Positions 10 through 14,243 of a stretch of DNA of 14,303 nucleotides are shown piece by piece (the first letter of the stretch is position 1; every line of letters starts with the position of its first letter). The notes beneath the pieces are model-generated. The model was not told the DNA's origin and made no database searches. It saw nothing but the letters and a program-made list of their open reading frames with translations. The DNA lies in NCBI GenBank assembly GCA_003696665.1, contig RFGJ01000511.1, forward strand, positions 1 through 14,303. Direction: 5' to 3'. This DNA comes from Gammaproteobacteria bacterium (GTDB taxonomy: Bacteria > Pseudomonadota > Gammaproteobacteria > Enterobacterales > GCA-002770795). A program made the translations under genes and the position numbers.

Positions 10-1674
10 TTATTTCTTCGTTTTAGACGGCTCATTCAATTTAAACAGCTGGGCCAAATTGGACGCGCCGCCGAGGATGGCCGCCGCCGCATTCAAAGAA
101 CCCTTGCTCTCGCCACCCACATAAATCACGGGCACCTTGACGATGTCCGGGTTGGCTTTGGCGACCTCCAAGAACTCTTTGAGCATCTGCAACTGCATAA
201 CGCGATCTTCACCCAAAACACGGGCCTGCGCTTTCTGACCTTCGGCAATTTGCATCAACTTAAGTTTCTCACCCTCGCCCTCTAATTTGAGCTTGTCGCG
301 GTTATGTTTGGCCGCTTCCTTGGCGATTTCAGCCGCCACCAGCACCGCTTGTTGATCAGCTGTCGCTTTTTCACGTTCGCGCGCGATACGCTCTTTTTGA
401 GCTTCTCGTTCACGCGCGTAGGTGGCTTTCAATTGGTTGGCGAGTTGTTCTCGCAAGGTGGCGACCATCAGCTCAGGGGGAATGGCCGGCTCTCCTAAAC
501 GCACTTCCATTAACGTGACACCCGCCTTGGCCGCTTCGACGCGCAAATGACTTTCTAAGCGTTTGGCAATACCATCGCGATTGTTCACGAAATCGAGTAC
601 TTTGGACGTCCCGCCGATGGTGCGCAACATATCGCGGATCAAAGGCGTAATGACTTTATCCTTGACCTCATTGATGCCACCGATGCCAGCGACAATACGC
701 GGGGCGCTGGCTGGCTCGACATAAGCGAGCACGCGCACTTCGACCGGTACCGTCCAGCCTTCCACTCGGACATTAATGGCCGGTCCGGCTGCGGTATCCG
801 GCACATCCACGCTTTCTTCGACGAAAGACTGGTGAATCTTGCCATCTTCGCCCACTTCCAGTTTAACGTCCCGCTTTGTATAACCGCCCTTGTATGTCCA
901 CACTTGCGCTCTGGTCGGCACAATGGTCGGTTTGTATGCAATCGGGTTAATGTAATGAATTCCCGTCGTCAACACGGTGTCCCAAACTCCAGGACAGCCC
1001 TTGGGAACCAACGGCACGACAAACGGACTGTCATCGCTGGCTTTTACCTTGGATGTGTCCGGACAATCATCGCGTTCCTTCACTGCTGAACGAATGACAG
1101 CCACCTGTCCAGCTTCGACCACCAACGCTGGCTTGAGTTGATACTTGAACAAATAATGATTGAAACGGTAGCGGCCCGGTGGCAAAACTGTAAGCTGTGG
1201 TCCCTTCTGGCCGCGTCCTTCGGTCAGGAAATAGGTCGCATCCAACATTTCCATTTTCTTGTCTTCTGGCCAGGCATCCGCGAACACCTGACCTGGGCGT
1301 AACATGGCGCCATCACGCGCGTGCAACAATAAGACATTATTGGGTGGCACTTCGACCACCGGCTTCATTTCAATGTCATAAATCACTCGCCCAAAAGGAA
1401 TAAAGTGATACCCAGGGCCAAGGATCTCGGCCTGAGGGCCTTTTTGTCCCGCCAAACCGATGATACGCCCCTCAGGTAAATCGCTCGCAAAATAAATTCG
1501 TTTCAGGTGGCCAACCTCATCTTCGCCTACCCAAACGGAAGACATGGTCACCAGCACAACACTCGCGCCCACAAACGCCAGTGCACTCACCATGATGCGC
1601 CGAATGCCCGCCAAATTTTTCAGGGCAAACAACCCAAACAGCACCAAAACCACGAATAAAATAAGAAAAATCAT
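10..1674 (-). CDS. Flotillin-like SPFH/band-7 family inner-membrane protein (YqiK-like), 554 aa
   Basis: Complete ORF with TAA stop at 10-12. The start ATG (1672-1674) lies 6 nt downstream of a GGAGG Shine-Dalgarno. There is an N-terminal hydrophobic helix (MIFLILFVVLVLFGLFAL). Two SPFH-like beta-rich segments are present (GYHFIPFGRVIYDIEMKPV; VPVEVRVLAYVEP; EVKDKVITPLIRDMLRTIGG). A long Ala/Glu/Lys/Arg-rich coiled-coil region (ATYAREREAQKERIAREREKATADQQAVLVAAEIAKEAAKHNRDKLKLEGE) and a C-terminal ...PDIVKVPVIYVGG tail are typical of the flotillin C-terminus. Length matches E. coli YqiK (553 aa). Family assignment is from motif recognition only. Confidence 0.7.
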   Translation of the reverse strand: MIFLILFVVLVLFGLFALKNLAGIRRIMVSALAFVGASVVLVTMSSVWVGEDEVGHLKRIYFASDLPEGRIIGLAGQKGPQAEILGPGYHFIPFGRVIYDIEMKPVVEVPPNNVLLLHARDGAMLRPGQVFADAWPEDKKMEMLDATYFLTEGRGQKGPQLTVLPPGRYRFNHYLFKYQLKPALVVEAGQVAVIRSAVKERDDCPDTSKVKASDDSPFVVPLVPKGCPGVWDTVLTTGIHYINPIAYKPTIVPTRAQVWTYKGGYTKRDVKLEVGEDGKIHQSFVEESVDVPDTAAGPAINVRVEGWTVPVEVRVLAYVEPASAPRIVAGIGGINEVKDKVITPLIRDMLRTIGGTSKVLDFVNNRDGIAKRLESHLRVEAAKAGVTLMEVRLGEPAIPPELMVATLREQLANQLKATYAREREAQKERIAREREKATADQQAVLVAAEIAKEAAKHNRDKLKLEGEGEKLKLMQIAEGQKAQARVLGEDRVMQLQMLKEFLEVAKANPDIVKVPVIYVGGESKGSLNAAAAILGGASNLAQLFKLNEPSKTKK

Positions 1675-1711
1675 TGACGCCTCCTCCCGAAGAATATTGT
1701 CCCATCACCCG

Positions 1712-3358
1712 CTACTGACCAATCCGACACGCAGCAGTTACATCCAAGTCGCTATCATATACGTCAGTTTCAATAGACATAAGGCCAAGCAGACTGTGGG
1801 ACACAACATCATGTGTCAGCCGTCGTTTTATCGATTGGGCAAGACATTGACGCGATACACCATGAATCCGTTGGAACGACTCGGATAACCACCAAATCAT
1901 TGGCACCCGTTTTTGTTCGTCAGGCGCCATAAAATAGGGTAATCCATGTAAATACACACCATTCTCACCAAGTGACTCCCCATGATCGGAGACATAAAAC
2001 ACCATGCTCGGTCGATTGGGATAATTTTGTTCAACCCACTCGATCACTTTATTGATAAAAAAATCGGTATAAAGAATTGTGTTGTCGTATGCATTCACGA
2101 CCGCCTGTTGCGAGCACTTCTCCAGTTGATTGGTGCGACATTCAGGCTGAAACTTCGCAAAGTTGGGCGGGTAGCGCCGATAGTAGGAAGGACCGTGACT
2201 GCCAATGGTATGCAAAACAATCAATGTTGGGGCATTGGCCTGATTGATCCAGTCAGACAAACCATTCAATAACACTTCATCATAACAACTTGTGGCAGAG
2301 CATTTGTCCCGGGTGCCAAATTCCTTGTAATTCTGAAATGCAACCCGATCACAAATATGTTTACAACCAGTGGAATTATCCCGCCACAAAACGCGGTAAC
2401 CGGCTCGCTTGGCGACGTCCAACACATTTTCTTGATATCGCGCGGTCTCAACGTCAAACTGGTCACGCGTCAGAAAACCGAACATACATGGCAAAGAATG
2501 CGCTGTATCAGTACCACACGACCAGACATCGTCAAAATTGATGAGGCTGTTCTGTCGCATTGTCAATTCTGGGTTGGTCTGGCGCGCATAGCCATTCAGC
2601 GAGAAATGATCACGCCGGGCAGTTTCGCCGGCGATAAAGACAATCAGTGGCGGTTGTTCATCCGACCAGCGTTTGTCCAGCGCGACATTTTTAGCCACCT
2701 GCTTAAACACTGGGGGATGCCTGAACTTCTCTTGCCAGTAGCGCGCGGTGTAATACACCACATTGGTTGGCGTGGCCATAAAGCGAATTTCTTTATGATT
2801 GCGAAATAGCGAAGAGATGCCATCGAATTGGACCATGATCGCAAGCACCATTGCCACGAGCCCCCAAGCCGTCCCGAACACGCTGCTCAGCCAAGGCCTT
2901 TTTCCCCAAGACAGGTCAAGGCGCCAAATCCCCCAAACCGGCAACACGAAGGTCACAAGCGCCCACCACAGCATATTGAGGTTGAGCAAATCCAAGGCTT
3001 CACGCTGATCCGTCTCGAACACGTTCCGAATCATGGCTTGATCGATGACAACATGGTAATGGGCCATGAAATAGGCCACCGACGCAGCCAGCAAGGTGAG
3101 TAATGAGCTCCAGACCTTAAACAAGCCTGGCCATGAACCAAGCGCCAACAGCAAGCGAAAAGTGCCCCACAATATCACCGCGAACGCGAAAACGCTGCCC
3201 CAGGCCACTCCTCGTGCCAGGCCAATCTGGTAAAGATGTTGCCACAAGGTCGTGTTAAAGACTGTCAACCAGTAAAGCGCAATAACATGCGCTAAATTGA
3301 TTGGGTTACGTAACCACTGGTGCAGCTTTTGTGCGATCTCTGTCGTTGACATAGCCAT
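1712..3358 (-). CDS. eptA: Phosphoethanolamine--lipid A transferase, EptA/PmrC (MCR) family, about 548 aa
   Basis: Strong colinear similarity to E. coli EptA and the MCR-1 sulfatase-like catalytic domain: GETARRDHFSLNGYARQTNPEL, SCGTDTAHSLPCMF (catalytic Thr nucleophile context), LIVLHTIGSHGPSYYRRYPP, YDNTILYTD, VSDHGESLGENGVYLHGLPYFMAPDEQKRVPMIWWLSE. The N-terminal about 200 aa has several hydrophobic helices, as in EptA. The six-frame ORF extends to 3463, but the first 35 codons overlap the lpd 3' end. The ATG at 3356-3358 (MAMSTTEIAQ...) gives the family-typical length of about 548 aa. Whether this is the eptA, eptC or an mcr-like subfamily member cannot be decided by eye. Confidence 0.88.
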   Translation of the reverse strand: MAMSTTEIAQKLHQWLRNPINLAHVIALYWLTVFNTTLWQHLYQIGLARGVAWGSVFAFAVILWGTFRLLLALGSWPGLFKVWSSLLTLLAASVAYFMAHYHVVIDQAMIRNVFETDQREALDLLNLNMLWWALVTFVLPVWGIWRLDLSWGKRPWLSSVFGTAWGLVAMVLAIMVQFDGISSLFRNHKEIRFMATPTNVVYYTARYWQEKFRHPPVFKQVAKNVALDKRWSDEQPPLIVFIAGETARRDHFSLNGYARQTNPELTMRQNSLINFDDVWSCGTDTAHSLPCMFGFLTRDQFDVETARYQENVLDVAKRAGYRVLWRDNSTGCKHICDRVAFQNYKEFGTRDKCSATSCYDEVLLNGLSDWINQANAPTLIVLHTIGSHGPSYYRRYPPNFAKFQPECRTNQLEKCSQQAVVNAYDNTILYTDFFINKVIEWVEQNYPNRPSMVFYVSDHGESLGENGVYLHGLPYFMAPDEQKRVPMIWWLSESFQRIHGVSRQCLAQSIKRRLTHDVVSHSLLGLMSIETDVYDSDLDVTAACRIGQ

Positions 3359-3373
3359 ATTCCAGAATGAATA

Positions 3374-3391
3374 GGGCGGCCTAAGCCGCCC
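3374..3391 (-). terminator. GC-rich stem-loop (GGGCGGC-CTAA-GCCGCCC) between lpd stop and eptA start; candidate intrinsic terminator or attenuator for the PDH operon
   Basis: Perfect 7-bp GC stem (3374-3380 pairs with 3385-3391) with a 4-nt loop. It lies 17 nt after the lpd TAA (3408-3410) on the minus strand. The following RNA is UAUUCAUUCUGGAA, which is only moderately U-rich, and the hairpin ends about 15 nt before the eptA ATG. Confidence 0.4.
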
Positions 3392-3407: not shown

Positions 3408-4826
3408 TTACTTTTTGCGTTTCGGTGGCAAGTCAGTACAAGTGCCTTCAAAAAACTCGGCACAAAGTCCGACCGATTCAGAGAGGGTCGGGTGAGGATG
3501 GATGGTCAATGCAAGGTCTTCGGCATCACAGCCCATCTCCACCGCCAAGGCAATTTCAGAAATCATCTCGCCAGCATTGATGCCAACGATGGCGCCGCCA
3601 AGCACACGATGTGTTTTGGCATCAAAAATCAGCTTGGTGAAGCCTTCTGTGCGTGAGACGCCAATGGCACGTCCGCTGGCAGTCCATGGGAACTTGGCTG
3701 TCTCAATGGCAATGCCTTTCTCTTTGGCTTCTTTTTCGGTGATGCCAACCCATGCCACCTCCGGATCCGTATAAGCAACCGACGGAATCACGAGAGGTTC
3801 AAAGAAGTGCTTCTTACCGGCAATCACTTCTGCGGCGACATGGGCTTCGTGTGTCGCTTTGTGCGCCAGCATTGGCTGACCAACAATATCACCAATGGCA
3901 AAAATATGCGGCACATTGGTTCGCATTTGTTTGTCTACCGGAATGAAGCCACGCTCGTCAACCTGCACACCCGCCTTGTCGGCATCAATCAGATCGCCAT
4001 TCGGACGGCGCCCAACTGCAGACAAAATCTTGTCATAGCGCTGCGGTTCACTGGGAGCATTTTTGCCTTCGAAAGTCACCCAAAGGCCATCTTTCTTGGC
4101 TTCCACCTTGGTGACCTGAGTCGAGAGCATAATCGCTTCATATTTCTTGCTGATGTACTTGTGCAGCACATTGACCACGTCTTTGTCGGCTGCCGGGATT
4201 AACTGATCTGCCATTTCGACAACCGAGATCTGGCTGCCAAGCGCGTTATACACAGTCGCCATTTCCAGTCCAATAATGCCCCCGCCAAGACACAGCATTC
4301 TCTGTGGTACATCCTTGAGCTCCAACGCAGTGGTCGAATTGAGGACACGCTCATCTTTCGGCAGGAACGGCAATTCCACTATCCGAGAGCCGGCCGCAAT
4401 AATGGCATAGTCAAAACGAATGGTCGTCTTGCTGCCATCTTCGGCTTCGACCACTAAAGTGTGGTCATCGGCAAAACGACCATAGCCCTGGACAACTTGC
4501 ACTTTGCGCATCTTGGCCATCGCCGACAAGCCGCCGGTTAACTGCTTGATAACGCCTTCCTTATAGGCCCGGATCTTGTCAATATCGATCTTGGGCACAC
4601 CAAAATTGACGCCATGTGCGCCCATCTCGGCCGCTTCGTCAATCACCTTGGCAACATGCAACAGCGCTTTTGACGGGATACAACCGACATTCAAACATAC
4701 ACCACCCAAGGTCGCATAGCGCTCAACAAGCACCGTATTGAGGCCCAAATCTGCCGCACGAAATGCCGCAGAATAACCTCCAGGCCCAGCGCCCAACACC
4801 ACAACCTGTGTCTTAATTTCGCTCAT
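3408..4826 (-). CDS. lpdA: Dihydrolipoyl dehydrogenase (E3 component of pyruvate/2-oxoglutarate dehydrogenase complexes), 472 aa
   Basis: N-terminal FAD-binding fingerprint VVVLGAGPGGYSAAFRAADLG. Redox-active disulfide motif GGVCLNVGCIPSK. NAD-binding GGGIIGLEMA. C-terminal HPHPTLSESVGLCAEFFEG matches the E. coli Lpd C-terminus. SD AAGGGG sits 6-7 nt before the ATG at 4824-4826. It follows aceE-aceF as in the enterobacterial PDH operon. Confidence 0.96.
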   Translation of the reverse strand: MSEIKTQVVVLGAGPGGYSAAFRAADLGLNTVLVERYATLGGVCLNVGCIPSKALLHVAKVIDEAAEMGAHGVNFGVPKIDIDKIRAYKEGVIKQLTGGLSAMAKMRKVQVVQGYGRFADDHTLVVEAEDGSKTTIRFDYAIIAAGSRIVELPFLPKDERVLNSTTALELKDVPQRMLCLGGGIIGLEMATVYNALGSQISVVEMADQLIPAADKDVVNVLHKYISKKYEAIMLSTQVTKVEAKKDGLWVTFEGKNAPSEPQRYDKILSAVGRRPNGDLIDADKAGVQVDERGFIPVDKQMRTNVPHIFAIGDIVGQPMLAHKATHEAHVAAEVIAGKKHFFEPLVIPSVAYTDPEVAWVGITEKEAKEKGIAIETAKFPWTASGRAIGVSRTEGFTKLIFDAKTHRVLGGAIVGINAGEMISEIALAVEMGCDAEDLALTIHPHPTLSESVGLCAEFFEGTCTDLPPKRKK

Positions 4827-4892: not shown

Positions 4893-6515
4893 TTACAGCA
4901 GAATGCGACGAATATCTGCCAGCACGCTCGACAAATGTGTGATAAAACGAGCCGCCACAGCACCATCAATGACTCGATGATCATAGGATAGCGACAAAGG
5001 CAGCATCAATCTTGGTTCAAAAGTCTCGCCATTCCATATCGGTTTCATCTGGCTTTTGGATACCCCTAAGATTGCCACATCAGGCCAGTTGACAATTGGC
5101 GTAAAGGCCGTACCACCGATGCCGCCCAGTGAAGATATGCTAAAACAGCTGCCCTGCATGTCTGCAGGTGACAACTTGCCTTCCCGGGCTTTTGCGCTGA
5201 CATCGGCCAGCTCCCGCGCCAAGTCATACACCGACTTTTGATCGACATTGCGAATCACGGGCACCACGAGACCATTCGGAGTATCCACGGCCACCCCGAG
5301 ATGGAAATATTTTTTAAGGATCAAGTGTTCACCGTCGTCTGCCAATGAAGCATTGAAGGTCGGAAAGGCTTTCAACGAACAAACCACTGCCTTCATAATA
5401 AATGCCAATGGCGTCAAGCGAATCCCTTCCTTGGCCGCTTCGGCTTTCATCGACTGGCGAAATGCTTCCAATTCCGTAATGTCAGCCTCATCATGCTGCG
5501 TGACATGAGGAATGGTGATCCAATTTCGGTGTAAGTTAACACTTGAAACTTTCTGAATGCGGGACAATGGCACCTGCTCGATTTCGCCAAATTTGGAATG
5601 ATCCACTTTTGGCATCTCAGGCATCGCAAAACCACCTGTGGTGGCTGTGGCTTTGGGCCGTGCCAACTCTTCTTTGACAAAACGTTGTACATCTTCTTTA
5701 ACAATCCGCCCCTTGGGTCCAGTTCCCTGTACACGCGTCAAATCAACCCCAAGCTCTCTCGCAAAACGGCGAACAGCAGGTGAAGCGTGCACCACTCCCT
5801 TCCTTGTGGGCTGATGCAATGCAGGGCGCTCCGGAACAGGTGGTTTCGGCACTCGGGGAGATACAGGGGAGCTCGGCGTTTGCTCGACCACGGTGGGGGC
5901 TGCCTCTGCCGGTGTGTCGGTGGTTTCAATTTCACCGATGACATCGCCGCTGTTGACCTTATCTCCCACCTGAACCGACAACTTGACAATTTTGCCCGCC
6001 AACGGTGACGGCATTTCCATCGTCGCCTTCTCAGACTCCAAGGTGAGAATGGGATCATCTGCCGCCACAACATCCCCTTCCTTGACCAGCACCTCGATCA
6101 CTGCCACGTCCTGCACATCGCCAATATCGGGCACACACAACGGTTGCCGGGCCGTAGCGCCCCGTTCAAGCGCTGGTGCTTCCGAGTTTGGTTCCGTCGG
6201 CAACGCATTTGAATGTGTCGTGGTATTTTCTGCGCTCGCTTCAGGCGCAGGTGTGGCCACATCCGAAGCCTCTGAATCATCGATTTCCAATCGCAAAATC
6301 GGCACGCCTTGCGACACCTTGCTTCCCACATCGACGAGTATTTCTTTAACAATGCCAGCCTGCGGAGAAGGTACCTCCATGGTCGCTTTATCCGACTCCA
6401 ACACCAGTACCGGCGTGTCAACATCAATGTGGTCGCCTACTTTCACCGGAATTTCAATGACATCGACCTCTCCGACATCACCAATATCCGGTAACGGGAT
6501 TTCTTTGACAGCCAT
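4893..6515 (-). CDS. aceF: Dihydrolipoamide acetyltransferase (PDH E2), 540 aa, with two N-terminal lipoyl domains
   Basis: Two lipoyl-attachment motifs (LESDKATMEVPSP and LESEKATMEMPSP) are separated by an Ala/Pro/Glu-rich linker. A peripheral-subunit-binding domain (ASPAVRRFARELGVDLTRVQGTGPKGRIVKEDV) follows. The C-terminal catalytic domain ends in the DHRVIDGA active-site motif. SD GGGGGAGA precedes the ATG at 6513-6515, and there is a 16-nt gap after the aceE stop. Confidence 0.96.
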   Translation of the reverse strand: MAVKEIPLPDIGDVGEVDVIEIPVKVGDHIDVDTPVLVLESDKATMEVPSPQAGIVKEILVDVGSKVSQGVPILRLEIDDSEASDVATPAPEASAENTTTHSNALPTEPNSEAPALERGATARQPLCVPDIGDVQDVAVIEVLVKEGDVVAADDPILTLESEKATMEMPSPLAGKIVKLSVQVGDKVNSGDVIGEIETTDTPAEAAPTVVEQTPSSPVSPRVPKPPVPERPALHQPTRKGVVHASPAVRRFARELGVDLTRVQGTGPKGRIVKEDVQRFVKEELARPKATATTGGFAMPEMPKVDHSKFGEIEQVPLSRIQKVSSVNLHRNWITIPHVTQHDEADITELEAFRQSMKAEAAKEGIRLTPLAFIMKAVVCSLKAFPTFNASLADDGEHLILKKYFHLGVAVDTPNGLVVPVIRNVDQKSVYDLARELADVSAKAREGKLSPADMQGSCFSISSLGGIGGTAFTPIVNWPDVAILGVSKSQMKPIWNGETFEPRLMLPLSLSYDHRVIDGAVAARFITHLSSVLADIRRILL

Positions 6516-6531
6516 GAATCATCTCCCCCTA

Positions 6532-9210
6532 TTAAACAGTGGCCGGATTAGGTTTGTCCGGATCAATGCCGTACTTCTTAATGGCGGCACTCACTGTCTT
6601 GCGCTCAATATCGCCTTGCTGCGCCAAGGCCGAGAGGGCGGCCACCGTAATATAGTACCGATCAACTTCAAAGAAACGGCGCAAATTCGCTCTCGAATCG
6701 CTTCGACCAAAGCCGTCTGTGCCAAGTGTAATGTAGGTGCCTGGCACCCAAGGACGAATCTGGTCAGCAAAAATCTTCATGTAATCGGTCGATGCCACCA
6801 CTGGGCCACCCCAGCGCTTCAAACATTTCTGCACATAGGCCTCACGCGGCCGGGATTCTGGGTGCAACATGTTCCAGCGATCTGTTTCCAAGCCTTCGCG
6901 CCGCAATTCTGTAAATGAGGTGACGCTCCATACGTTTGAAATAATGCCCCAGTCTTGCGCCAACAACTCAGCCGCGGCCAAACATTCGCGCAAGATGGTG
7001 CCGCTGCCAAGCAACTGAACCATCTCACCTTTTTTGGGTTTCCGCTTTTGCGTCCAACCCTGTTTGAGCAGGTACATCCCTTTAATAATCCCTTCTTCAG
7101 CCCCCTCGGGCATTTCCGGATGGGGGTAGTTTTCATTCATCGTCGTGATGTAATAAAACACGTTTTCCTGCTCTTTCACCATGCGTCGCAATCCCTCGCG
7201 TATGATCACGGCGAGCTCATAGCCATAAGTTGGGTCATAGGACACACAGTTCGGAATGGTTGATGACAGTACATGGCTATGACCGTCCTGATGTTGCAGA
7301 CCCTCCCCGTTAAGGGTGGTTCTCCCGGCCGTTGCCCCGATCAGAAAACCGCGCGCCTGAATATCGCCAGCAGCCCAGGCCAAATCACCAACGCGCTGGA
7401 AACCAAACATGGAGTAAAACACATAGAAGGGAATCATCGGCAAGTTATTGTTTGAATAGCTTGTCGCCGCCGCTATCCAAGATGACATGGCGCCAGCTTC
7501 ATTGATGCCCTCTTCAAGTATTTGTCCCTTCTTATCTTCTCGGTAATACATCAATTGATCAGCGTCCACCGGCCGGTAAAGCTGGCCAACCGAGGAATAA
7601 ATGCCATACTGCCGGAACATGCCCTCCATGCCAAAAGTGCGTGCCTCATCCGGAACGATGGGCACAACGTTGGCCCCGATATTCTTATCCTTCATGAGGG
7701 TGTTGATAATTCGAACCAGCGCCATCGTGGTGGACATTTCTCGGTCACCCGAACCTTTATAGAGCGCCTCGAAGGCATCACTCGGTGGCACACCCAACGA
7801 AATGCTGCGCCGACGGCGACTCGGCAGATAACCACCGAGCGCGGCGCGGCGCTCGCGCAAATATTCGAGTTCTGGACTATTTTCTGCGGGCTTGTAATAA
7901 GGCACTTCAGCTAGCTGACTATCGGGAATTGGCACATCGAAACGATCACGGAAGTAACGGATCGCCTCCATGTCGAGCTTCTTCACTTGGTGGGCAATAT
8001 TTTTCCCCTCGCCGCTCGGGCCCATACCATAGCCCTTCACGGTTTTGGCCAAAATTACAGTCGGCTGTCCCTTGTGATGAACGGCCGCATGGTAAGCGTT
8101 ATACACCTTGTGCGGATCATGCCCCCCACGGTTCAAGCGCCAAATGTCTTCATCTGACATATTGGCAACCATTTCTTTAAGTTCAGGATACTTACCAAAG
8201 AAATGCTCGCGCGTGTATGCCCCACCTTTCGCTTTACAGTTCTGATATTCGCCATCGACCGTTTCTTCCATGACTTTGAGCAGTAGCCCTTTGGTGTCCC
8301 TTGCAATCAGCGGGTCCCAGTATCGCCCCCAGATCACCTTGATGACATTCCAGCCAGCACCGCGGAAATCTGCTTCCAATTCCTGAATAATTTTTCCGTT
8401 ACCGCGTACGGGGCCGTCAAGCCGCTGAAGATTACAATTGATGACAAAGGTCAAATTATCCAGTTGCTCACGGCCGGCGAGTGAAATGGCGCCGAGAGAT
8501 TCCGGCTCATCCATTTCGCCATCACCCATAAATGCCCAAACACGGCGATTAGTTGTGTCAGCCAATCCACGGTTATGCAAATATTTCAGAAAACGTGCCT
8601 GATAAATCGCTTGGATCGGCCCCAAACCCATCGATACCGTTGGAAATTGCCAGAAATCTGGCATCAACCAAGGATGCGGGTATGAACTTAACCCCTTGCC
8701 GTCCACTTCTTGACGGAAATTATCTAATTGTTCCGCGGTCAACCGTCCTTCGAGAAAGGCGCGTGCATAAATTCCAGGGGCGGAATGCCCCTGAATATAG
8801 ACAAGATCGCCACCATGTTTTTCGTTAGCGGCATGGAAGAAGTGATTAAACCCGACGTCGTACAAAGTGGCTGCCGAAGCAAAGCTCGAAATATGTCCAC
8901 CAAGCTCAAGATTCTTTTTACTGGCTCTAACCACCATCGCCATGGCGTTCCAACGGATAATCGAGCGCAATCGGCGCTCCATGGCCTGATCACCTGGCAT
9001 CGCCACCTCTTGGGACGGAGTGATGGTGTTCAAATAGGCCGTGGTCATTTTATACGGCAAATACGCGCCGGAACGCCGCGCCTTATCGATAAGTTTTTCA
9101 AGTAAAAAATGAGCGCGTTCAGGCCCCTCTCGTTCAAGCACTGCCTCCATGGCATCCAGCCATTCGCTGGTTTCAATCGGGTCAATATCAGTTTGCTGAT
9201 CAATGCTCAT
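6532..9210 (-). CDS. aceE: Pyruvate dehydrogenase E1 component (homodimeric AceE type), about 892 aa
   Basis: N-terminus MSIDQQTDIDPIETSEWLDAMEAVLEREGPERAHFLLEKLIDKARR is colinear with E. coli AceE (MSERFPNDVDPIETRDWLQAIESV...), and the length of about 890 aa fits. The ORF track begins at a GTG (9229-9231). The ATG at 9208-9210, preceded by AGGGGGAA with 6-nt spacing, is the better-supported start. Confidence 0.94.
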   Translation of the reverse strand: MSIDQQTDIDPIETSEWLDAMEAVLEREGPERAHFLLEKLIDKARRSGAYLPYKMTTAYLNTITPSQEVAMPGDQAMERRLRSIIRWNAMAMVVRASKKNLELGGHISSFASAATLYDVGFNHFFHAANEKHGGDLVYIQGHSAPGIYARAFLEGRLTAEQLDNFRQEVDGKGLSSYPHPWLMPDFWQFPTVSMGLGPIQAIYQARFLKYLHNRGLADTTNRRVWAFMGDGEMDEPESLGAISLAGREQLDNLTFVINCNLQRLDGPVRGNGKIIQELEADFRGAGWNVIKVIWGRYWDPLIARDTKGLLLKVMEETVDGEYQNCKAKGGAYTREHFFGKYPELKEMVANMSDEDIWRLNRGGHDPHKVYNAYHAAVHHKGQPTVILAKTVKGYGMGPSGEGKNIAHQVKKLDMEAIRYFRDRFDVPIPDSQLAEVPYYKPAENSPELEYLRERRAALGGYLPSRRRRSISLGVPPSDAFEALYKGSGDREMSTTMALVRIINTLMKDKNIGANVVPIVPDEARTFGMEGMFRQYGIYSSVGQLYRPVDADQLMYYREDKKGQILEEGINEAGAMSSWIAAATSYSNNNLPMIPFYVFYSMFGFQRVGDLAWAAGDIQARGFLIGATAGRTTLNGEGLQHQDGHSHVLSSTIPNCVSYDPTYGYELAVIIREGLRRMVKEQENVFYYITTMNENYPHPEMPEGAEEGIIKGMYLLKQGWTQKRKPKKGEMVQLLGSGTILRECLAAAELLAQDWGIISNVWSVTSFTELRREGLETDRWNMLHPESRPREAYVQKCLKRWGGPVVASTDYMKIFADQIRPWVPGTYITLGTDGFGRSDSRANLRRFFEVDRYYITVAALSALAQQGDIERKTVSAAIKKYGIDPDKPNPATV

Positions 9211-9346
9211 GCGGTTCCCCCTGTTCACCACAGGCCAATGCCTACAGAAAGTGTAGTGCCGAATTCGAATTTGTCAGATCTGGCAATCGTGACAGCTCGG
9301 CCCGTTGACAAAATTGGGCACAGGATAACAGGTGGACTGGCGACAA

Positions 9347-9375: not shown

Positions 9376-9404
9376 TTTATATAGCATCTAGAAAATGGAC
9401 ACAA
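9376..9404 (-). promoter_or_regulatory. Candidate sigma70 promoter for aceE-aceF-lpd (-35 TTGTGT at 9399-9404, 17-nt spacer, -10 TATAAA at 9376-9381), overlapping the ampE stop codon
   Basis: Minus-strand read is TTGTGT-CCATTTTCTAGATGCTA-TATAAA, followed by an A/T-rich tract and the PdhR-like palindrome about 15-30 nt downstream. Hexamers were picked by eye. The implied 5' leader is about 160 nt and contains a 10-bp perfect palindrome AATTCGAATT (9262-9271). Confidence 0.3.
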
Positions 9405-10101
9405 ACGCCAGAATCACAAGCAAGGCTAACAGTGCGCGACGGTTGAGGGCAGAACGCTGTATCTGCTGTTCAGGCGCAGTCAGTTCGTCCCACAGCGGTT
9501 CAAGCGCCGCGATACTTCCACGTTCGACCAATTCTTCAGCCTCACCATCACGAGGCAACGCCAATCCTTTTGCCATCAAAAAATGCATGCAAGTATGGAA
9601 ATTTCCTACTAAGGCATAACTGATGACGACGACTCGCGCTGGCACCCACAAAACCCACGGAATCACGACTTCCGACACCTGAGTCCAAACCGCCTGACTT
9701 TGACGTGTTAACAACAAACGTACAGAAACAAGCCCCAAAATACCAAATACCCCATAAAAGAAGACACAGCTGACCAAACGAAGCACTTGTGCCGTATCCA
9801 TGTCCTCGTCAAAGCCAATCGGCCCCAGTGCCACCGTCAATACCAACACATGAAGAAGCAGCAGCGCCAATAAATGGTTTCCAGAAATTATTTTGACCAA
9901 TGCGGCCACCACGACCGCCGTACCCAAAATTGTCAGGCTCCAGCCAGCAACGCCTCGCCCCCATGATTTTTGCGCTAACCCTTGCCAGCAATAGTCAACC
10001 CAGCGTTCCCACAACTCAACCACCTGTTCGGCCAATTGAGGATATGCCTGTTGCCACCAATAAATGGCGAGCGTGGCAAAAACCAATGCGACAAAAGTCA
10101 T
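9388..10101 (-). CDS. ampE: AmpE-like inner-membrane protein (ampD operon partner), 237 aa
   Basis: Polytopic hydrophobic protein located directly downstream of ampD, as in the E. coli ampDE operon. The C-terminal region (PARVVVISYALVGNFHTCMHFLMAKGL) resembles E. coli AmpE ([32 protein letters not shown]). SD AAGGGGTGA precedes the ATG at 10099-10101. It is shorter than E. coli AmpE (284 aa). Confidence 0.72.
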   Translation of the reverse strand: MTFVALVFATLAIYWWQQAYPQLAEQVVELWERWVDYCWQGLAQKSWGRGVAGWSLTILGTAVVVAALVKIISGNHLLALLLLHVLVLTVALGPIGFDEDMDTAQVLRLVSCVFFYGVFGILGLVSVRLLLTRQSQAVWTQVSEVVIPWVLWVPARVVVISYALVGNFHTCMHFLMAKGLALPRDGEAEELVERGSIAALEPLWDELTAPEQQIQRSALNRRALLALLVILAFVSIF

Positions 10102-10190: not shown

Positions 10191-10820
10191 TTACTTTCGG
10201 CAAATCTGCCTGAGGTAATATGGCCAATCGAAAAAAGGCCCTGGATCCGTCTTCCGGCCCGGTGCAATGTCGCTGTGGCCTACGATACGTTCCGGCACGA
10301 CCATCTCGTATCGACGCATTATGGCCTTGGTCAACGCCACCAGTGCGTCGTACTGCACCGACTCAAAAGGTGCGTCATCGGTGCCCTCAAGCTCGATACC
10401 AACCGATCGGCTGTTACAGTCTGGATGACCAAGGTAGGTCGATTCCCCAGCATGCCACGCCCGATCTAACGTGCTGACAAATTGGACGACCTCGCCATTT
10501 CGACGAATAAAAAAATGAGACGATACACGCAAGTCCTTTATTTCTACAAAATATGGATGCGCACTCTCATTCAGAGTGCCGAGAAAAAATTGCTCAACAA
10601 AGGGGGTGAGATAATGCCGTGGTGGCAAGCTAATGCAATGAATGACCACCATATCAACAAGACCTGTCATGCGCACATTAAAATGCGGGGAGGGCACATG
10701 TCTCGCCCCTTGGCACCAACCATCTTCTTTTATGGTGAAACCAACCTGCCTTTCCAAGTCACGTTGACCAAGTCTATGTGTATTCTTCACTTTTTGACTT
10801 AAGTGCCCGGAGGTTAGCAA
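10191..10820 (-). CDS. ampD: 1,6-anhydro-N-acetylmuramoyl-L-alanine amidase AmpD (zinc amidase_2 family)
   Basis: Colinear with E. coli AmpD: GWCQGARHVPSPHF vs GWLVGARRVPSPHY; VVIHCISLPP (zinc-ligand His); AHPYFVEIKDLRVSSHFFIRRNGEVVQFV; RAWHAGES; IGIELEGTD; GHSDIAPGRKTDPGPFFDW (second His and Asp zinc ligands). The start codon is uncertain. The six-frame ORF opens at a TTG (10818-10820), and there is no in-frame ATG upstream of the conserved N-terminus. Alternatives are a GTG at 10788-10790 and a TTG at 10755-10757. None has a convincing SD. The 5' end overlaps or abuts the stop (10774-10776) of the upstream 805-aa gene. Confidence 0.85.
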   Translation of the reverse strand: MLTSGHLSQKVKNTHRLGQRDLERQVGFTIKEDGWCQGARHVPSPHFNVRMTGLVDMVVIHCISLPPRHYLTPFVEQFFLGTLNESAHPYFVEIKDLRVSSHFFIRRNGEVVQFVSTLDRAWHAGESTYLGHPDCNSRSVGIELEGTDDAPFESVQYDALVALTKAIMRRYEMVVPERIVGHSDIAPGRKTDPGPFFDWPYYLRQICRK

Positions 10821-13191
10821 TGACTGACTCTAACGCACGGTCAAATAAGGCGCCATCTTCCAGCGGACGCATTTCGCCTCTGCGCATGGCAATGGCAAGC
10901 CCGGCTCTGGTGTAATCAGCGACCTTGGTTCCGGTTCGACTGACGAAAACATAGCGATCCACAGTTGGGATAATGGCAGCAAGTTTGCACCGTGTTTTGT
11001 TGCCGTCTCGGGTCATTTCAAACCATGTTCCGGACCGCAACAAATCGACCTCCATGAGATATTTATCGTCCTCTGGCAGGCTCGCAACCTCACCCGTCAT
11101 ACCCTCAATGTCCGACAGTTCAATTTCTTCAACGACAGCGTCACCTGAAGGCAAATCATCCTCTGAGGTCGATTCGCTCAACGTTGTCGCCACAGTTTCC
11201 GGTGCGTGTTCAAGGTCGTGGTCGAGAATTTCTTCAACGCTTTCCATTCTCTTCAAATCTTGTCCAAGCCCGGCCTCTCTGTCAGTTTCAACATTCCTGT
11301 GATCTGCCTCCTGGTCTGCCAACCTTTCCCCACCTTCACTCTTCGGCGCACTTGTTTGCGACTTAACTGGCGCAAGGTCTTCGCCTTTAAGCACCCTTAA
11401 GTGCAATTTTTCGAGCTGATGCAATAGTTCTTCTGACTCAAGCTGGCCAAAAGAGGCAGCCTCTAGACCGGAGCGTATTTTTTGAATGAGGTGCGGCAGT
11501 CGAGCGGTGAGCGTTTTTCGCCCTTCTAAACTTTGTGGCGGTGTGAGCGACATCAACAGATCCTGGACAACGGCGACGGCCTGTGACCAATGCGCACTGT
11601 CCGGCCCTTCCTTCAGATACGCCAAGAAAAGCACATTTTTCCAACCATTGAACAGCAACCGACGAACAGCCTCGGGCAATTCCCGACCGGCGATGCACTC
11701 ATGGAGTGTCCGCATGACTTCACGCTTGGCCAACTCTGCTTTAGCCCGGCCTTCCTCGGCTTGTTTTGTCCGTTCTTCAATTCGTTTCGCTCGGCGCTCG
11801 AGCTCATCCATGAAAGCCCGAAATTCCTCTAGTAACTCTTCGAAGATAGACGTATCGTCATCGAACTCTTCAAGAATCCGATTGACAATAGCCTCCATTT
11901 TTGGTTTCAGTCCGCCGTTTTGGCCAGCTCGGGCAGGATCCCAGCCAAGCCCCGCTTGTGCCATTTCATTCAGTAATTTCCGCGCGGGGTGGTTGGATTT
12001 TGAGAAAAACGTCTTGTCGATAATGGCGACCTTAAGCATCGGGATCTGGAGGCGACCGATGATGGCTTTCATCTCATCGGGCAGGTTCTTATCGCCAAGA
12101 ATAAATTCAAACAGCATGGCGATGACGTCAATGACATCTTCATTGACCTGACCGAGTGCGACTGGTTGACCACCCGAAACTGTCGGAAGCACTTGACCGA
12201 TTTGCTGCCTTAGTGCCTGTGGTGACGTAATGACTGGCGCCTGTGCTTGTACCGAACCTAGTGCGCTAACCAGCGTATCGGCGTCAATCGCAACGTTTTG
12301 CGATGTCTGTGAATTACCCACCGGACTATTCTCGGATGACATCCCAGCCGAGCGACGAGCCACCGTCAATAGTTCGTGCAATGCCTCAAGGATCTCGCTG
12401 CTTTCGTGCCCCTCACCACCGGCATCGTTCGTAACGTGCCGGGCTCTATCGGATGAGCCTTTAGACGACCTATGTGATTGGCGACGTTGTGGTGCGGCCA
12501 TCGCCAAGTCCGGCAAGATTCCATGTTGGGCAAGATATTCGTTGAGTTCGGCGTACAAATCACCAAGCGTGACCATCACCATACGTTCGAAAAGTTTATA
12601 GACCACTAATTTCGCACGGATCTCAAGCTCAAGACAGCTCGCCGCTTGTCGAAACGCATTGGCGATGGCCACTGGATCGACAGGATTATTCTCTTGCGTG
12701 ACTGGGATATGAGTGACAACCGCATCCATACGACGCGTCAACGCTTCTAACTGTTCTTTACAATCAGCGCGCACTTTTTTGACCATGTTTTCCACGGCCA
12801 AATCTTCTTCAAGCTGTTCCTCCTGAACCAGCTGTAACTGGTCGACCCTGATTCTTTCAAGGTTGTTGTCTTGAGTGGCTTCCGTGTCGGAATGCGTCGT
12901 CAATTCGTCAAACTTTTCCTCAAGCCGTCGGCGAAATGCACTTTCGACTGCCTTTCGTTTAATACGAAGGGCGCGCATAGAGTCAAAGTATTGGGTTTGA
13001 TCTTTGTCGTTACCGGCACGTTCCGCCAAATCAAACAGGTGGTCATCTGCGCCACTAAGCATACGTGCCAGACTATCCATCAAATAGGCGACGGCCTTAT
13101 CTCTTACTTGTATTAACAACTTGGGTAGACTCCTAGACCTAGTCGAAACAAACTGCGTATCCTTATCCGTAATAAACGATTGACGCTTCAT
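10774..13191 (-). CDS. Large (805 aa) acidic, coiled-coil-rich conserved hypothetical protein, possibly DUF1631-like; function unknown
   Basis: Uninterrupted 2.4-kb ORF with ATG at 13189-13191 and a GGTGA SD-like sequence 5 nt upstream. The N-terminal block is LPKLLIQVRDKAVAYLMDSLARMLSGADDHLFDLAERAGNDKDQTQYFDSMRALRIKRKAVESAFRRRLEEKF. A Ser/Gln/Gly-rich, probably disordered segment runs roughly aa 230-330. A conserved-looking core reads GRLQIPMLKVAIIDKTFFSKSNHPARKLLNEMAQAGLGW. Long Glu/Arg/Lys coiled-coil stretches follow (ELERRAKRIEERTKQAEEGRAKAELAKREV). There is a very acidic segment (SESTSEDDLPSGDAVVEEIELSDIEG) and a compact C-terminal domain (WFEMTRDGNKTRCKLAAIIPTVDRYVFVSRTGTKVADYTRAGLAIAMRRGE). 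No signal peptide or TM helices are evident. The DUF1631 assignment is from memory of that family's HPAR...LLN core and is not verified. Confidence 0.8.
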   Translation of the reverse strand: MKRQSFITDKDTQFVSTRSRSLPKLLIQVRDKAVAYLMDSLARMLSGADDHLFDLAERAGNDKDQTQYFDSMRALRIKRKAVESAFRRRLEEKFDELTTHSDTEATQDNNLERIRVDQLQLVQEEQLEEDLAVENMVKKVRADCKEQLEALTRRMDAVVTHIPVTQENNPVDPVAIANAFRQAASCLELEIRAKLVVYKLFERMVMVTLGDLYAELNEYLAQHGILPDLAMAAPQRRQSHRSSKGSSDRARHVTNDAGGEGHESSEILEALHELLTVARRSAGMSSENSPVGNSQTSQNVAIDADTLVSALGSVQAQAPVITSPQALRQQIGQVLPTVSGGQPVALGQVNEDVIDVIAMLFEFILGDKNLPDEMKAIIGRLQIPMLKVAIIDKTFFSKSNHPARKLLNEMAQAGLGWDPARAGQNGGLKPKMEAIVNRILEEFDDDTSIFEELLEEFRAFMDELERRAKRIEERTKQAEEGRAKAELAKREVMRTLHECIAGRELPEAVRRLLFNGWKNVLFLAYLKEGPDSAHWSQAVAVVQDLLMSLTPPQSLEGRKTLTARLPHLIQKIRSGLEAASFGQLESEELLHQLEKLHLRVLKGEDLAPVKSQTSAPKSEGGERLADQEADHRNVETDREAGLGQDLKRMESVEEILDHDLEHAPETVATTLSESTSEDDLPSGDAVVEEIELSDIEGMTGEVASLPEDDKYLMEVDLLRSGTWFEMTRDGNKTRCKLAAIIPTVDRYVFVSRTGTKVADYTRAGLAIAMRRGEMRPLEDGALFDRALESVIANLRALKSKSEEYT

Positions 13192-13283: not shown

Positions 13284-13358
13284 GGGCATGGTGGCGCTTC
13301 CAAACTTGAATAAAGCCCAGTATGATTGCGCCATACTGTTCATGTGAAGACTTCGACT

Positions 13359-14243
13359 ATGCACCCCAAATTGACTGCCAAATTGCGTCGCTATGACTGG
13401 CCAAAAATTATTTCTGAAAACGTCCATATTGCCCTGCAAGAGGATCTTGGTCCAGATACTATTGATGTGACCGCGCAACTCATTGATGAGCATGCTGAAT
13501 TTACGGCCGATCTTTGGGTGCGCGAATATTGTCGCCTGGCAGGTCAAGACTGGTTTACTGAAAGTTTTCGACAAGTGAGCGAGGCTGTCTGCGTCGAATG
13601 GTATTATCAAGACGGAGATGACATACCGGCCAATTCCCATGTTGCTACCGTCACAGGTCCAGCTCGCGCGATTCTCACGGCTGAACGAACGGCAATCAAT
13701 TTTCTACAAACCCTTTCCGGCACGGCGACCCGGACGGCCAATTGGCAGAAAAAAATCGCACAACAGCATACGGTACTCCTCGATACTCGAAAAACTATCC
13801 CAGGCTTGCGATTTGCACAGAAATACGCGGTATTTTGCGGTGGCGGACAAAATCACCGAATTGGGCTTTTCGATCAATTTCTGATCAAGGAAAACCACAT
13901 CGCCGCCGCCGGAAGCATTGTCAAAGCCATAGACAAAGCCAGAAAACTCGCACCCACACTTAAAGTCGAGGTCGAAGTGGAGAATTGGGAGGAGTTTCAG
14001 GCAGCGGTGGAAGGAAAAGCAGACATTATCATGCTCGATAATTTTACACTTGACGACATCAGGCGCGCTATCCACTGGCTTTCAGAGCAGGACATCACGC
14101 CCCGTCCAATGCTCGAAGCGTCCGGGAACATCAGCGAAGACAATCTTGCCGATTATGCAGCAACAGGTGTGGATTACATATCGAGCGGAGCATTAACCAA
14201 GTCAGTCTCTGCCATTGACTTTTCGTTGCGTTATCGCACGTAA
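13359..14243 (+). CDS. nadC: Nicotinate-nucleotide pyrophosphorylase [carboxylating] (quinolinate phosphoribosyltransferase), about 294 aa
   Basis: Colinear with E. coli NadC: ALQEDLGPD...DVTAQLI; GPARAILTAERTAINFLQTLSG; LLDTRKTIPGLRFAQKYAVFCGGGQNHRIGLFDQFLIKENHI; EVEVENWEEF; ADIIMLDNF; LEASGNI; GVDYISSGALTKSV. The ORF track opens at a TTG (13326). The first ATG at 13359 gives the family-typical length. TAA stop at 14241-14243. It is divergent from ampD as in E. coli and Vibrio. Confidence 0.92.
   Translation: MHPKLTAKLRRYDWPKIISENVHIALQEDLGPDTIDVTAQLIDEHAEFTADLWVREYCRLAGQDWFTESFRQVSEAVCVEWYYQDGDDIPANSHVATVTGPARAILTAERTAINFLQTLSGTATRTANWQKKIAQQHTVLLDTRKTIPGLRFAQKYAVFCGGGQNHRIGLFDQFLIKENHIAAAGSIVKAIDKARKLAPTLKVEVEVENWEEFQAAVEGKADIIMLDNFTLDDIRRAIHWLSEQDITPRPMLEASGNISEDNLADYAATGVDYISSGALTKSVSAIDFSLRYRT

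Follow-up and report, generated by a model that had tools for sequence, protein, structure and literature searches.

How should a gene for an EptA/MCR-family phosphoethanolamine (pEtN) transferase be read when it stands directly behind a pyruvate dehydrogenase (PDH) operon; is it a resident of its chromosome, or a colistin-resistance gene on the move? This question is raised by a contig of 14,303 bp from the metagenome-assembled genome of an uncultured Gammaproteobacteria bacterium (RFGJ01000511.1, assembly GCA_003696665.1), the whole of which we call the window. The gene, here named ept, occupies positions 1712–3358 of the minus strand and was characterized through its open reading frame (ORF), NCBIfam and Pfam profiles, PDB matches, an AlphaFold2 (AF2) model and hydropathy. 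Its 548-amino-acid (aa) product, Ept, already carries the NCBI (PGAP) name 'phosphoethanolamine--lipid A transferase' (RMH38393.1, 548 aa). Our reading, to which we give a probability of about 0.8, is that ept encodes an intact inner-membrane pEtN transferase of the EptA/MCR lipid A type, and that the gene is vertically inherited and probably expressed by read-through.

Family membership of Ept

Profile scores place Ept among the lipid A-type transferases. The general NCBIfam model for this family, NF028537, spans residues 20–540 of 548 and passes its cut-off (560.6 bits vs 500, E=3e-168); the models for EptB (204 bits vs 493) and CptA (144 bits vs 404) fail. The best of the specific NCBIfam models is the enteric EptA equivalog NF008619, which also fails (498.5 bits vs a cut-off of 660). 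So do all of the NCBIfam models for MCR-1 to MCR-13, at 334–409 bits against cut-offs of 1075–1250; the highest score belongs to an MCR-3-related model (409 bits vs 1075), and the others reach 334–396 bits vs 1100–1250. Pfam assigns an EptA_B_N domain (PF08019, residues 66–211) and a Sulfatase domain (PF00884, residues 237–528), and the solved structures that match best by sequence are full-length Neisseria meningitidis EptA (NmEptA; 5fgn, E=1e-105) and MCR-1 (9nww, E=6e-101). The catalytic domain of Campylobacter jejuni EptC (4tn0) is matched as well, at E=1.5e-73.

A neighbour-joining tree (533 columns, 200 bootstraps, simple corrected p-distances) was built from Ept, E. coli K-12 eptA, eptB and eptC, the plasmid-borne MCR-1.1, 3.1, 5.1, 8.1, 9.1 and 10.1, a pEtN transferase from a Pseudomonas putida plasmid, NmEptA rebuilt from its PDB alignment, and 12 database homologues. 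Ept falls within the EptA/MCR clade, with 84% bootstrap support against EptB and EptC, both of which are outgroups. Its partner is the database homologue P0002 (96%), followed by P0003 (82%); a supported affinity to any of the included MCR families was not found in this tree. Since the profile scores (560 and 498 bits vs 204 and 144) and the tree agree, the assignment of Ept as a predicted EptA/MCR-type lipid A pEtN transferase, and not an EptB or EptC, is supported; the original prediction had proposed this family, and the placement with EptB or EptC that would have spoken against it did not occur.

How close, then, is Ept to its named relatives? Segments of the protein had been described as very close to both E. 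coli EptA and MCR-1, and for the family-wide motifs this description stands; these motifs are near-invariant across the whole family, which explains the apparent closeness. It does not stand for the protein overall, as global identity is 35.4% to E. coli EptA and 34.5% to MCR-1. The corresponding values are 34.0% for NmEptA, 35.2% for MCR-3, 36.8% for MCR-5, 36.7% for MCR-8 and 32.5% for both MCR-9 and MCR-10, with E. coli EptB at 26.3% and E. coli EptC at 20.3%. In other words, Ept belongs to the broad lipid A pEtN transferase family as a divergent member, without being an EptA equivalog in the strict sense, an MCR, an EptB or an EptC. The subclade to which it belongs is small and deep, and its sequence gives no hint of a new activity.

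Catalytic residues and fold

The ept reading frame runs on the minus strand from an ATG at 3358 to a TAG stop codon at 1714–1712. Starting instead at another in-frame ATG, at 3352, yields the 546-aa form found in Logan assemblies. We also considered a GTG start at 3463, which would lengthen the product to 583 aa; this start is unlikely, as the frame would then run across the hairpin described below and share 56 nt with the upstream gene lpd, and the N-termini of homologues lend it no support.

The three hallmark motifs on which the family assignment was first based are all found in the translation, and alignment mapping with a translation check gives their positions on the minus strand. CGTDTAHS lies at residues 281–288 (nt 2495–2518), and its Thr285 (nt 2504–2506) aligns with the nucleophile Thr280 of NmEptA and with Thr285 of MCR-1; Cys281 pairs by alignment with Cys291 in the first disulfide. 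HTIGSHGP lies at residues 383–390 (nt 2189–2212), with His383 and His388 aligned to His378 and His383 of NmEptA and to His390 and His395 of MCR-1. The third motif, DHGESLGENGVYLHGLPY, lies at residues 458–475 (nt 1934–1987) and carries two zinc ligands, Asp458 and His459, as well as Glu461 and His471 (D452, H453, E455 and H465 in NmEptA). As a set, T285, E245, D458, H459, H383, H388, E461 and H471 of Ept align with T280, E240, D452, H453, H378, H383, E455 and H465 of NmEptA and with T285, E246, D465, H466, H390, H395, E468 and H478 of MCR-1. The MCR-1 numbers that come out of this alignment (E246, T285, H390, H395, D465, H466 and H478) agree with the positions in the MCR-1 literature, which supports the residue alignment. 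Additionally, N112, T116 and E120 of the membrane domain, together with K333, are kept as in NmEptA and MCR-1 and are altered in EptB or EptC, and Ept retains all 10 cysteines that form the five disulfides of NmEptA, most of which are missing in EptB and EptC.

An AF2 model of Ept, computed from a 30-sequence alignment, has a mean predicted local distance difference test (pLDDT) score of 89.5 and a predicted template modelling (pTM) score of 0.88. The whole length of the model can be superposed on 5fgn (template modelling (TM) scores 0.89/0.91, rmsd 2.4 Å) and on MCR-1 9nww (TM 0.87/0.90). Hydropathy shows five N-terminal hydrophobic helices, at about residues 22–186, after which comes the periplasmic sulfatase-fold domain at 237–528. 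From the conserved key residues, the confident full-length model and the five hydrophobic segments, ept is very probably intact and functional.

Is there any sign that ept is instead a decaying or non-functional remnant behind the PDH operon? The Shine-Dalgarno sequence ahead of its ATG is weak (ctggaatATG), and a terminator-like hairpin stands directly upstream, both of which would suit such a remnant. The ORF is, however, full length and uninterrupted, its catalytic and disulfide residues are intact, and the model is confident throughout; furthermore, the orthologue at locus L001, introduced below, has likewise stayed intact while diverging to 52% identity, and this implies purifying selection. 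We therefore regard a remnant as very improbable.

Inheritance of ept

Where did ept come from? The closest relatives of Ept are few. Among 5.8 billion proteins, one cluster alone is more than 46% identical to it, namely P0002 at 52–53%, and the rest stand at about 40%. A contig profile search with the Ept and P0002 alignment (two peptide patterns) returned just distant homologues of 36–44% identity, from Hyphomicrobium, Chromatiaceae, Fluviicoccus and others. The P0002 protein shares the CGTDTAHS and HTIGSHGP motifs with Ept, and its gene (locus L001) occupies the same position, in the order DUF1631-ampD-ampE-aceE-aceF-lpd-ept (L001–L004; contigs from several samples, the longest of 1 Mb). 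Identity between the window and L001 is 90% for Lpd (89.8%), 87% for AceE, 71% for AceF, 55% for AmpD, 54.5% for DUF1631, 52% for Ept and 46% for the AmpE-like protein. The divergence of Ept thus matches that of the non-core neighbours in the block, i.e. DUF1631, AmpD and AmpE.

Base composition tells of a gene at home. The GC content of ept tracks that of its genome, 0.49 (0.493) in a genome of 0.51 and, for the L001 orthologue, 0.56 in a genome of 0.59; third-position GC (GC3) in ept is 0.554 and its relative synonymous codon usage (RSCU) correlation is 0.78, both like the window neighbours. Recent horizontal transfer, which the slightly low GC of ept might suggest, was considered and rejected, because GC3 and RSCU resemble those of the neighbours and the L001 orthologue has the same small offset at 59% GC. 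In the 14.3 kb of the window there is no tRNA, Rfam element, transposase, insertion sequence (IS), integrase or flanking repeat, and the short repeats that do occur are at chance level.

These results bear on the alternative that ept is a mobilisable mcr-like gene for colistin resistance, acquired recently and lying beside the PDH operon by chance. Such a gene might look much as ept does in two respects; its regulator-less context resembles the 'single-gene operon' of mcr-4, -5, -9 and -10 rather than canonical eptA (PMC10285318), and its GC of 0.493 is slightly under that of its neighbours (0.50–0.53). The alternative is already largely refuted. The MCR model scores (334–409 bits vs 1075–1250), the identity of 32–37% to MCR proteins and the lack of an MCR affiliation in the tree all argue against it, as do a slot that is conserved in L001 with neighbour-like divergence, a GC3 and codon usage indistinguishable from those of the neighbours, and the absence from the window of IS, integrase, tRNA and flanking repeats. 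Plasmid-borne homologues of Ept exist, and all 2339 matches are less than 60% identical to it. We put the chance that ept is a mobile mcr gene at next to nothing.

The best plasmid homologue, at 40% identity, is the pEtN transferase of P. putida pKF715B, a conjugative Pseudomonas plasmid (locus L027, 3914–5611). A heavy-metal response regulator, a cation diffusion facilitator (CDF) transporter and an IS3 transposase lie near it, a truly mobile, metal-linked context for a pEtN transferase.

The reading that ept is chromosomal and intrinsic, as the original prediction had it, and not a mobilised mcr gene is supported; vertical inheritance follows from the conserved slot behind lpd in L001, where the homologue is 52% identical, from the neighbour-like divergence, from the matching codon usage and GC3, and from the lack of IS, tRNA and repeats. 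When might the gene have arrived? The best named relatives of AceE are from Kangiellaceae (Pleionea, Kangiella and Aliikangiella; 75–77% identity), and the next-closest lineage by AceE (76–77%), comprising Pleionea litopenaei and two metagenome-assembled genomes, keeps the order nadC/DUF1631-ampD-ampE-aceE-aceF-lpd. These three have an HDOD-SpoIIE (PP2C) gene 3' of lpd and no ept (L032–L034, about 14900–16700). The simplest reading of these sequences is that ept was inserted once, 3' of lpd, in the ancestor that the window lineage shares with that of L001, and descended vertically thereafter.

Synteny breaks down on the 3' side of lpd, which is occupied by ept and an SPFH gene in the window, by ept and a convergent aconitase gene in L001 (9863–11700), and by HDOD-SpoIIE in Pleionea and related metagenome-assembled genomes; the block upstream, nadC/DUF1631-ampD-ampE-aceE-aceF-lpd, is common to them all.

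Expression and regulation

In E. coli K-12, eptA-basR-basS are contiguous. What regulates ept? The original prediction had noted that no pmrAB flanks the gene, and we agree; response regulators and histidine kinases are absent among the window ORFs, and the 14.3-kb window also lacks a TetR regulator, pap2 and dgkA. Within 10 kb on either side of the L001 orthologue there is likewise no two-component system, TetR regulator, pap2 or dgkA. Gaballa et al. (2023) found the chromosomal eptA genes that they analysed to lie, without exception, beside a two-component system or TetR-type regulator, and mcr genes to be single-gene units or to adjoin pap2 or dgkA (PMC10285318). By that scheme the context of ept is 'mcr-like', though it is clearly non-mobile. 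Two distant homologues at about 40% identity, P0017 and P0006, do lie in classic cassettes that combine PAP2 with a histidine kinase and an OmpR-type regulator (L030, 8001–12344; L031, 6020–12704), and dgkA, bacA and another gene of the sulfatase family are found near P0006. P0003 adjoins lptF/lptG with no adjacent regulator. Outside enterics, the absence of an adjacent two-component system is not exceptional, as is seen from P0003 and from neisserial eptA, which shares a transcript with serC (PMC6111236).

The junction between lpd and ept offers a clue to how ept might be transcribed. The two genes are separated by 49 nt, in which a GC-rich hairpin, GGGCGGC-TTAG-GCCGCCC followed by TATTCATTCT, lies at 3391–3374 on the minus strand and ends 15 nt ahead of the ept ATG. 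It is terminator-like with a weak U-tract, has a predicted folding energy of −24.1 kcal/mol (z = −2.6 vs shuffles), and heads a list of 12 terminator-like sites from a 10.2-kb scan, among which it is the sole one with seven G-C pairs. A hairpin is also present 3' of lpd in L001. A consensus scan for sigma-70-like sites found none near the ept start or in the lpd-ept gap. Since the hairpin fills the gap and no promoter-like site accompanies it, ept mRNA would have to cross the hairpin, and we infer read-through or a promoter internal to lpd. Sigma-70-like sites were seen at 9277–9250 (minus strand), upstream of aceE, and at 4980–5009 (minus strand), in the 3' end of aceF and upstream of lpd.

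On its other side, ept is followed after 37 nt by a gene for a 554-aa SPFH/Band-7 membrane protein (10–1674, minus strand; Pfam PF01145, E=7e-19), which has a strong Shine-Dalgarno sequence, GGGAGGAGG, at 1680–1688 (minus strand). The consensus scan found no terminator-like site between the ept stop codon and this gene. The short gap, the strong Shine-Dalgarno sequence and the absence of an intervening terminator-like site suggest that ept and the SPFH gene are probably co-transcribed in the window genome; the pairing is not conserved in L001. The downstream gene had been called a flotillin gene. An SPFH-domain gene it is, but the flotillin label is not confirmed beyond Pfam Band_7; the protein has an N-terminal hydrophobic helix and a Band_7 domain at residues 233–427 only, with no NCBIfam match and no flotillin-specific domain. 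It matches prohibitin structures weakly (E about 1e-4), is named hypothetical by NCBI, and is a singleton at 90% clustering.

A more far-reaching proposal can be built on this arrangement, namely that the subclade of Ept and P0002 is hard-wired to the 3' end of the aceE-aceF-lpd operon, that ept is transcribed only when polymerase reads through a leaky hairpin behind lpd, and that in the window genome it shares its transcript with the gene for the SPFH protein, a membrane scaffold. Decoration of lipid A with pEtN would then be constitutive and coupled to central carbon metabolism, and not to an envelope or metal sensor of the PmrAB type. We find this proposal rather doubtful. If it were true, PDH-coupled constitutive decoration might have arisen in adaptation to a hot-spring habitat that is saline and rich in iron.

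Proposed mechanism and acceptor

How would Ept work? By homology, five N-terminal transmembrane helices would anchor a periplasmic sulfatase-fold domain, in which a zinc ion held by Glu245, Asp458 and His459 would activate Thr285. The threonine would take pEtN from phosphatidylethanolamine as a covalent intermediate, with release of diacylglycerol, and pEtN would then be passed on to a lipid A phosphate. The outer membrane would become less negatively charged, and polymyxins, metal cations and cationic peptides would bind to it less. Transcription would enter ept through read-through from lpd and the PDH operon or from an lpd-internal promoter, and would run on into the SPFH gene; if read-through is the route, lipid A modification would be largely constitutive and not PmrAB-induced.

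A number of points weigh against this reading or parts of it. Concerning the family, a score under the EptA equivalog cut-off rules Ept out as a strict orthologue of the enteric protein; MCR-2, -4, -6 and -7 are absent from the tree and are covered instead by the NCBIfam models of MCR-1 to -13; and the deep nodes inside the EptA/MCR clade are poorly supported, at 10–57%. Concerning expression, the scans for promoters and terminators look for matches to a simple consensus, and their counts in the region do not rise above those expected from shuffled sequence; the hairpin may serve to stabilise mRNA; ept transcripts may arise within lpd, from a promoter that is weak or not of the sigma-70 type; and a regulator could possibly lie elsewhere in the genome, beyond the visible 14.3 kb. 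Concerning the acceptor, lipid A is one that we infer from the sequence. Members of the clade differ in site selectivity, and some, such as C. jejuni EptC, use targets other than lipid A.

Might Ept, then, decorate something else; Kdo in the manner of EptB, a core heptose in the manner of EptC/CptA, or a protein or glycan in the manner of C. jejuni EptC and neisserial PptA? The substrate is not readable from the sequence, the subclade is deep and uncharacterised (at most 52–53% identity in 5.8 billion proteins, with the rest at about 40%), the score is under the EptA equivalog cut-off, and 4tn0 is a good match (E=1.5e-73), all of which leave room for another acceptor. Pulling the other way, the EptB (204 bits) and CptA (144 bits) scores are far weaker than those of the lipid A-type models, the tree sets Ept apart from EptB and EptC, N112, T116, E120 and K333 follow NmEptA and MCR-1, and the five EptA disulfides are complete. 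On balance we regard an acceptor other than lipid A as quite unlikely, and lipid A stays the predicted target.

The surrounding locus

All but one of the large ORFs in the window lie on the minus strand. The gene lpd (dihydrolipoyl dehydrogenase, E3; 3408–4826, minus strand; TIGR01350, 502 bits, above cut-off) is directly upstream of ept, preceded by aceF (PDH E2; 4893–6515, minus strand; TIGR01348, 680 bits) and aceE (PDH E1; 6532–9210, minus strand, with an 892-aa start; TIGR00759, 1531 bits), so the position directly behind the PDH operon, aceE-aceF-lpd, is as originally described. Further upstream on the same strand are genes for a weak AmpE-like membrane protein of 237 aa (9388–10101, in the ampE position) and, by profile matches, AmpD (10191 to about 10790) and a DUF1631 protein (10774–13191); nadC (13326–14243, plus strand, profile matches) is divergent. 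Downstream of ept, the window shows just 1.7 kb.

Some details of these neighbours deserve mention. A pdhR repressor gene does not precede aceE in the window lineage. The AmpE-like ORF (9388–10101, minus strand), between ampD and aceE, has zero Pfam matches and is named hypothetical by NCBI; its NCBIfam AmpE match is sub-threshold (E=3e-7, 30 bits vs 238), and its L001 counterpart is 46% identical. For AmpD, the longest ORF has its start at 10820, inside the 3' end of the DUF1631 gene, with which it shares 47 nt (10774–10820); other gene calls begin AmpD further downstream (199 aa in L006, 153 aa in L005), so that its start is tentative.

A sequence identical to the window is also found in the Logan assemblies of SRR7905022 and SRR7905024, the former a metagenome of the Jinata iron-rich hot-spring source pool (PMC12501874).

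Significance and comparison with known systems

What does this locus add? It is one data point against the notion that chromosomal eptA always adjoins a regulator, in contrast to the survey of Gaballa et al. 2023 (PMC10285318), and it presents ept as a lineage-specific attachment to the PDH operon. Both the PDH-adjacent position and the regulator-less neighbourhood are lineage-specific features and mildly interesting; neither alters our understanding of the enzyme family. There is also a practical consequence for resistome surveys: an 'mcr-like' match of this kind, at about 35% identity to MCRs, intrinsic and vertically inherited in an environmental gammaproteobacterium, is not to be scored as mobile colistin resistance.

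With EptA (LptA) of N. meningitidis and N. gonorrhoeae, Ept shares the full-length architecture, the nucleophile threonine, the zinc ligands, the five disulfides, and HTIGSHGP and CGT-x-TAHS motifs that are identical or nearly so. The genes are alike too in not standing beside a two-component system, the neisserial one sharing its transcript with serC, a housekeeping gene upstream of it (PMC6111236). They differ in that the proteins are 34% identical and belong to different subclades, and in that ept has lpd upstream and the SPFH gene downstream; in contrast to Neisseria eptA, no poly-T phase-variation tract was noticed in ept on reading the sequence, although no systematic search was made. 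EptA (PmrC) of E. coli and Salmonella belongs to the same lipid A-type clade and has the same catalytic motifs, but Ept scores 498.5 bits against the cut-off of 660 and is 35.4% identical, and its gene is followed by the SPFH gene and not by basR/basS.

The MCR-1 to MCR-13 proteins have the same fold and catalytic machinery (TM 0.87 to 9nww), and mcr-4, -5, -9 and -10 resemble ept in having no adjacent regulator, pap2 or dgkA (PMC10285318). Unlike them, Ept is 32–37% identical to MCRs and under all of their cut-offs, and its gene is not on a mobile element and has conserved chromosomal synteny; additionally, Ept has two disulfides that are missing from MCR-1, C332-C336 and C505-C544. The nearest system is that of P0002 at L001. 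Here the differences lie in the surroundings; a convergent aconitase gene and not an SPFH gene is found downstream, the lpd-ept gap is 137 nt vs 49 nt in the window, and genome GC is 59% vs 51%. What the two have in common is 52–53% identity, the motifs, the gene order and a hairpin 3' of lpd.

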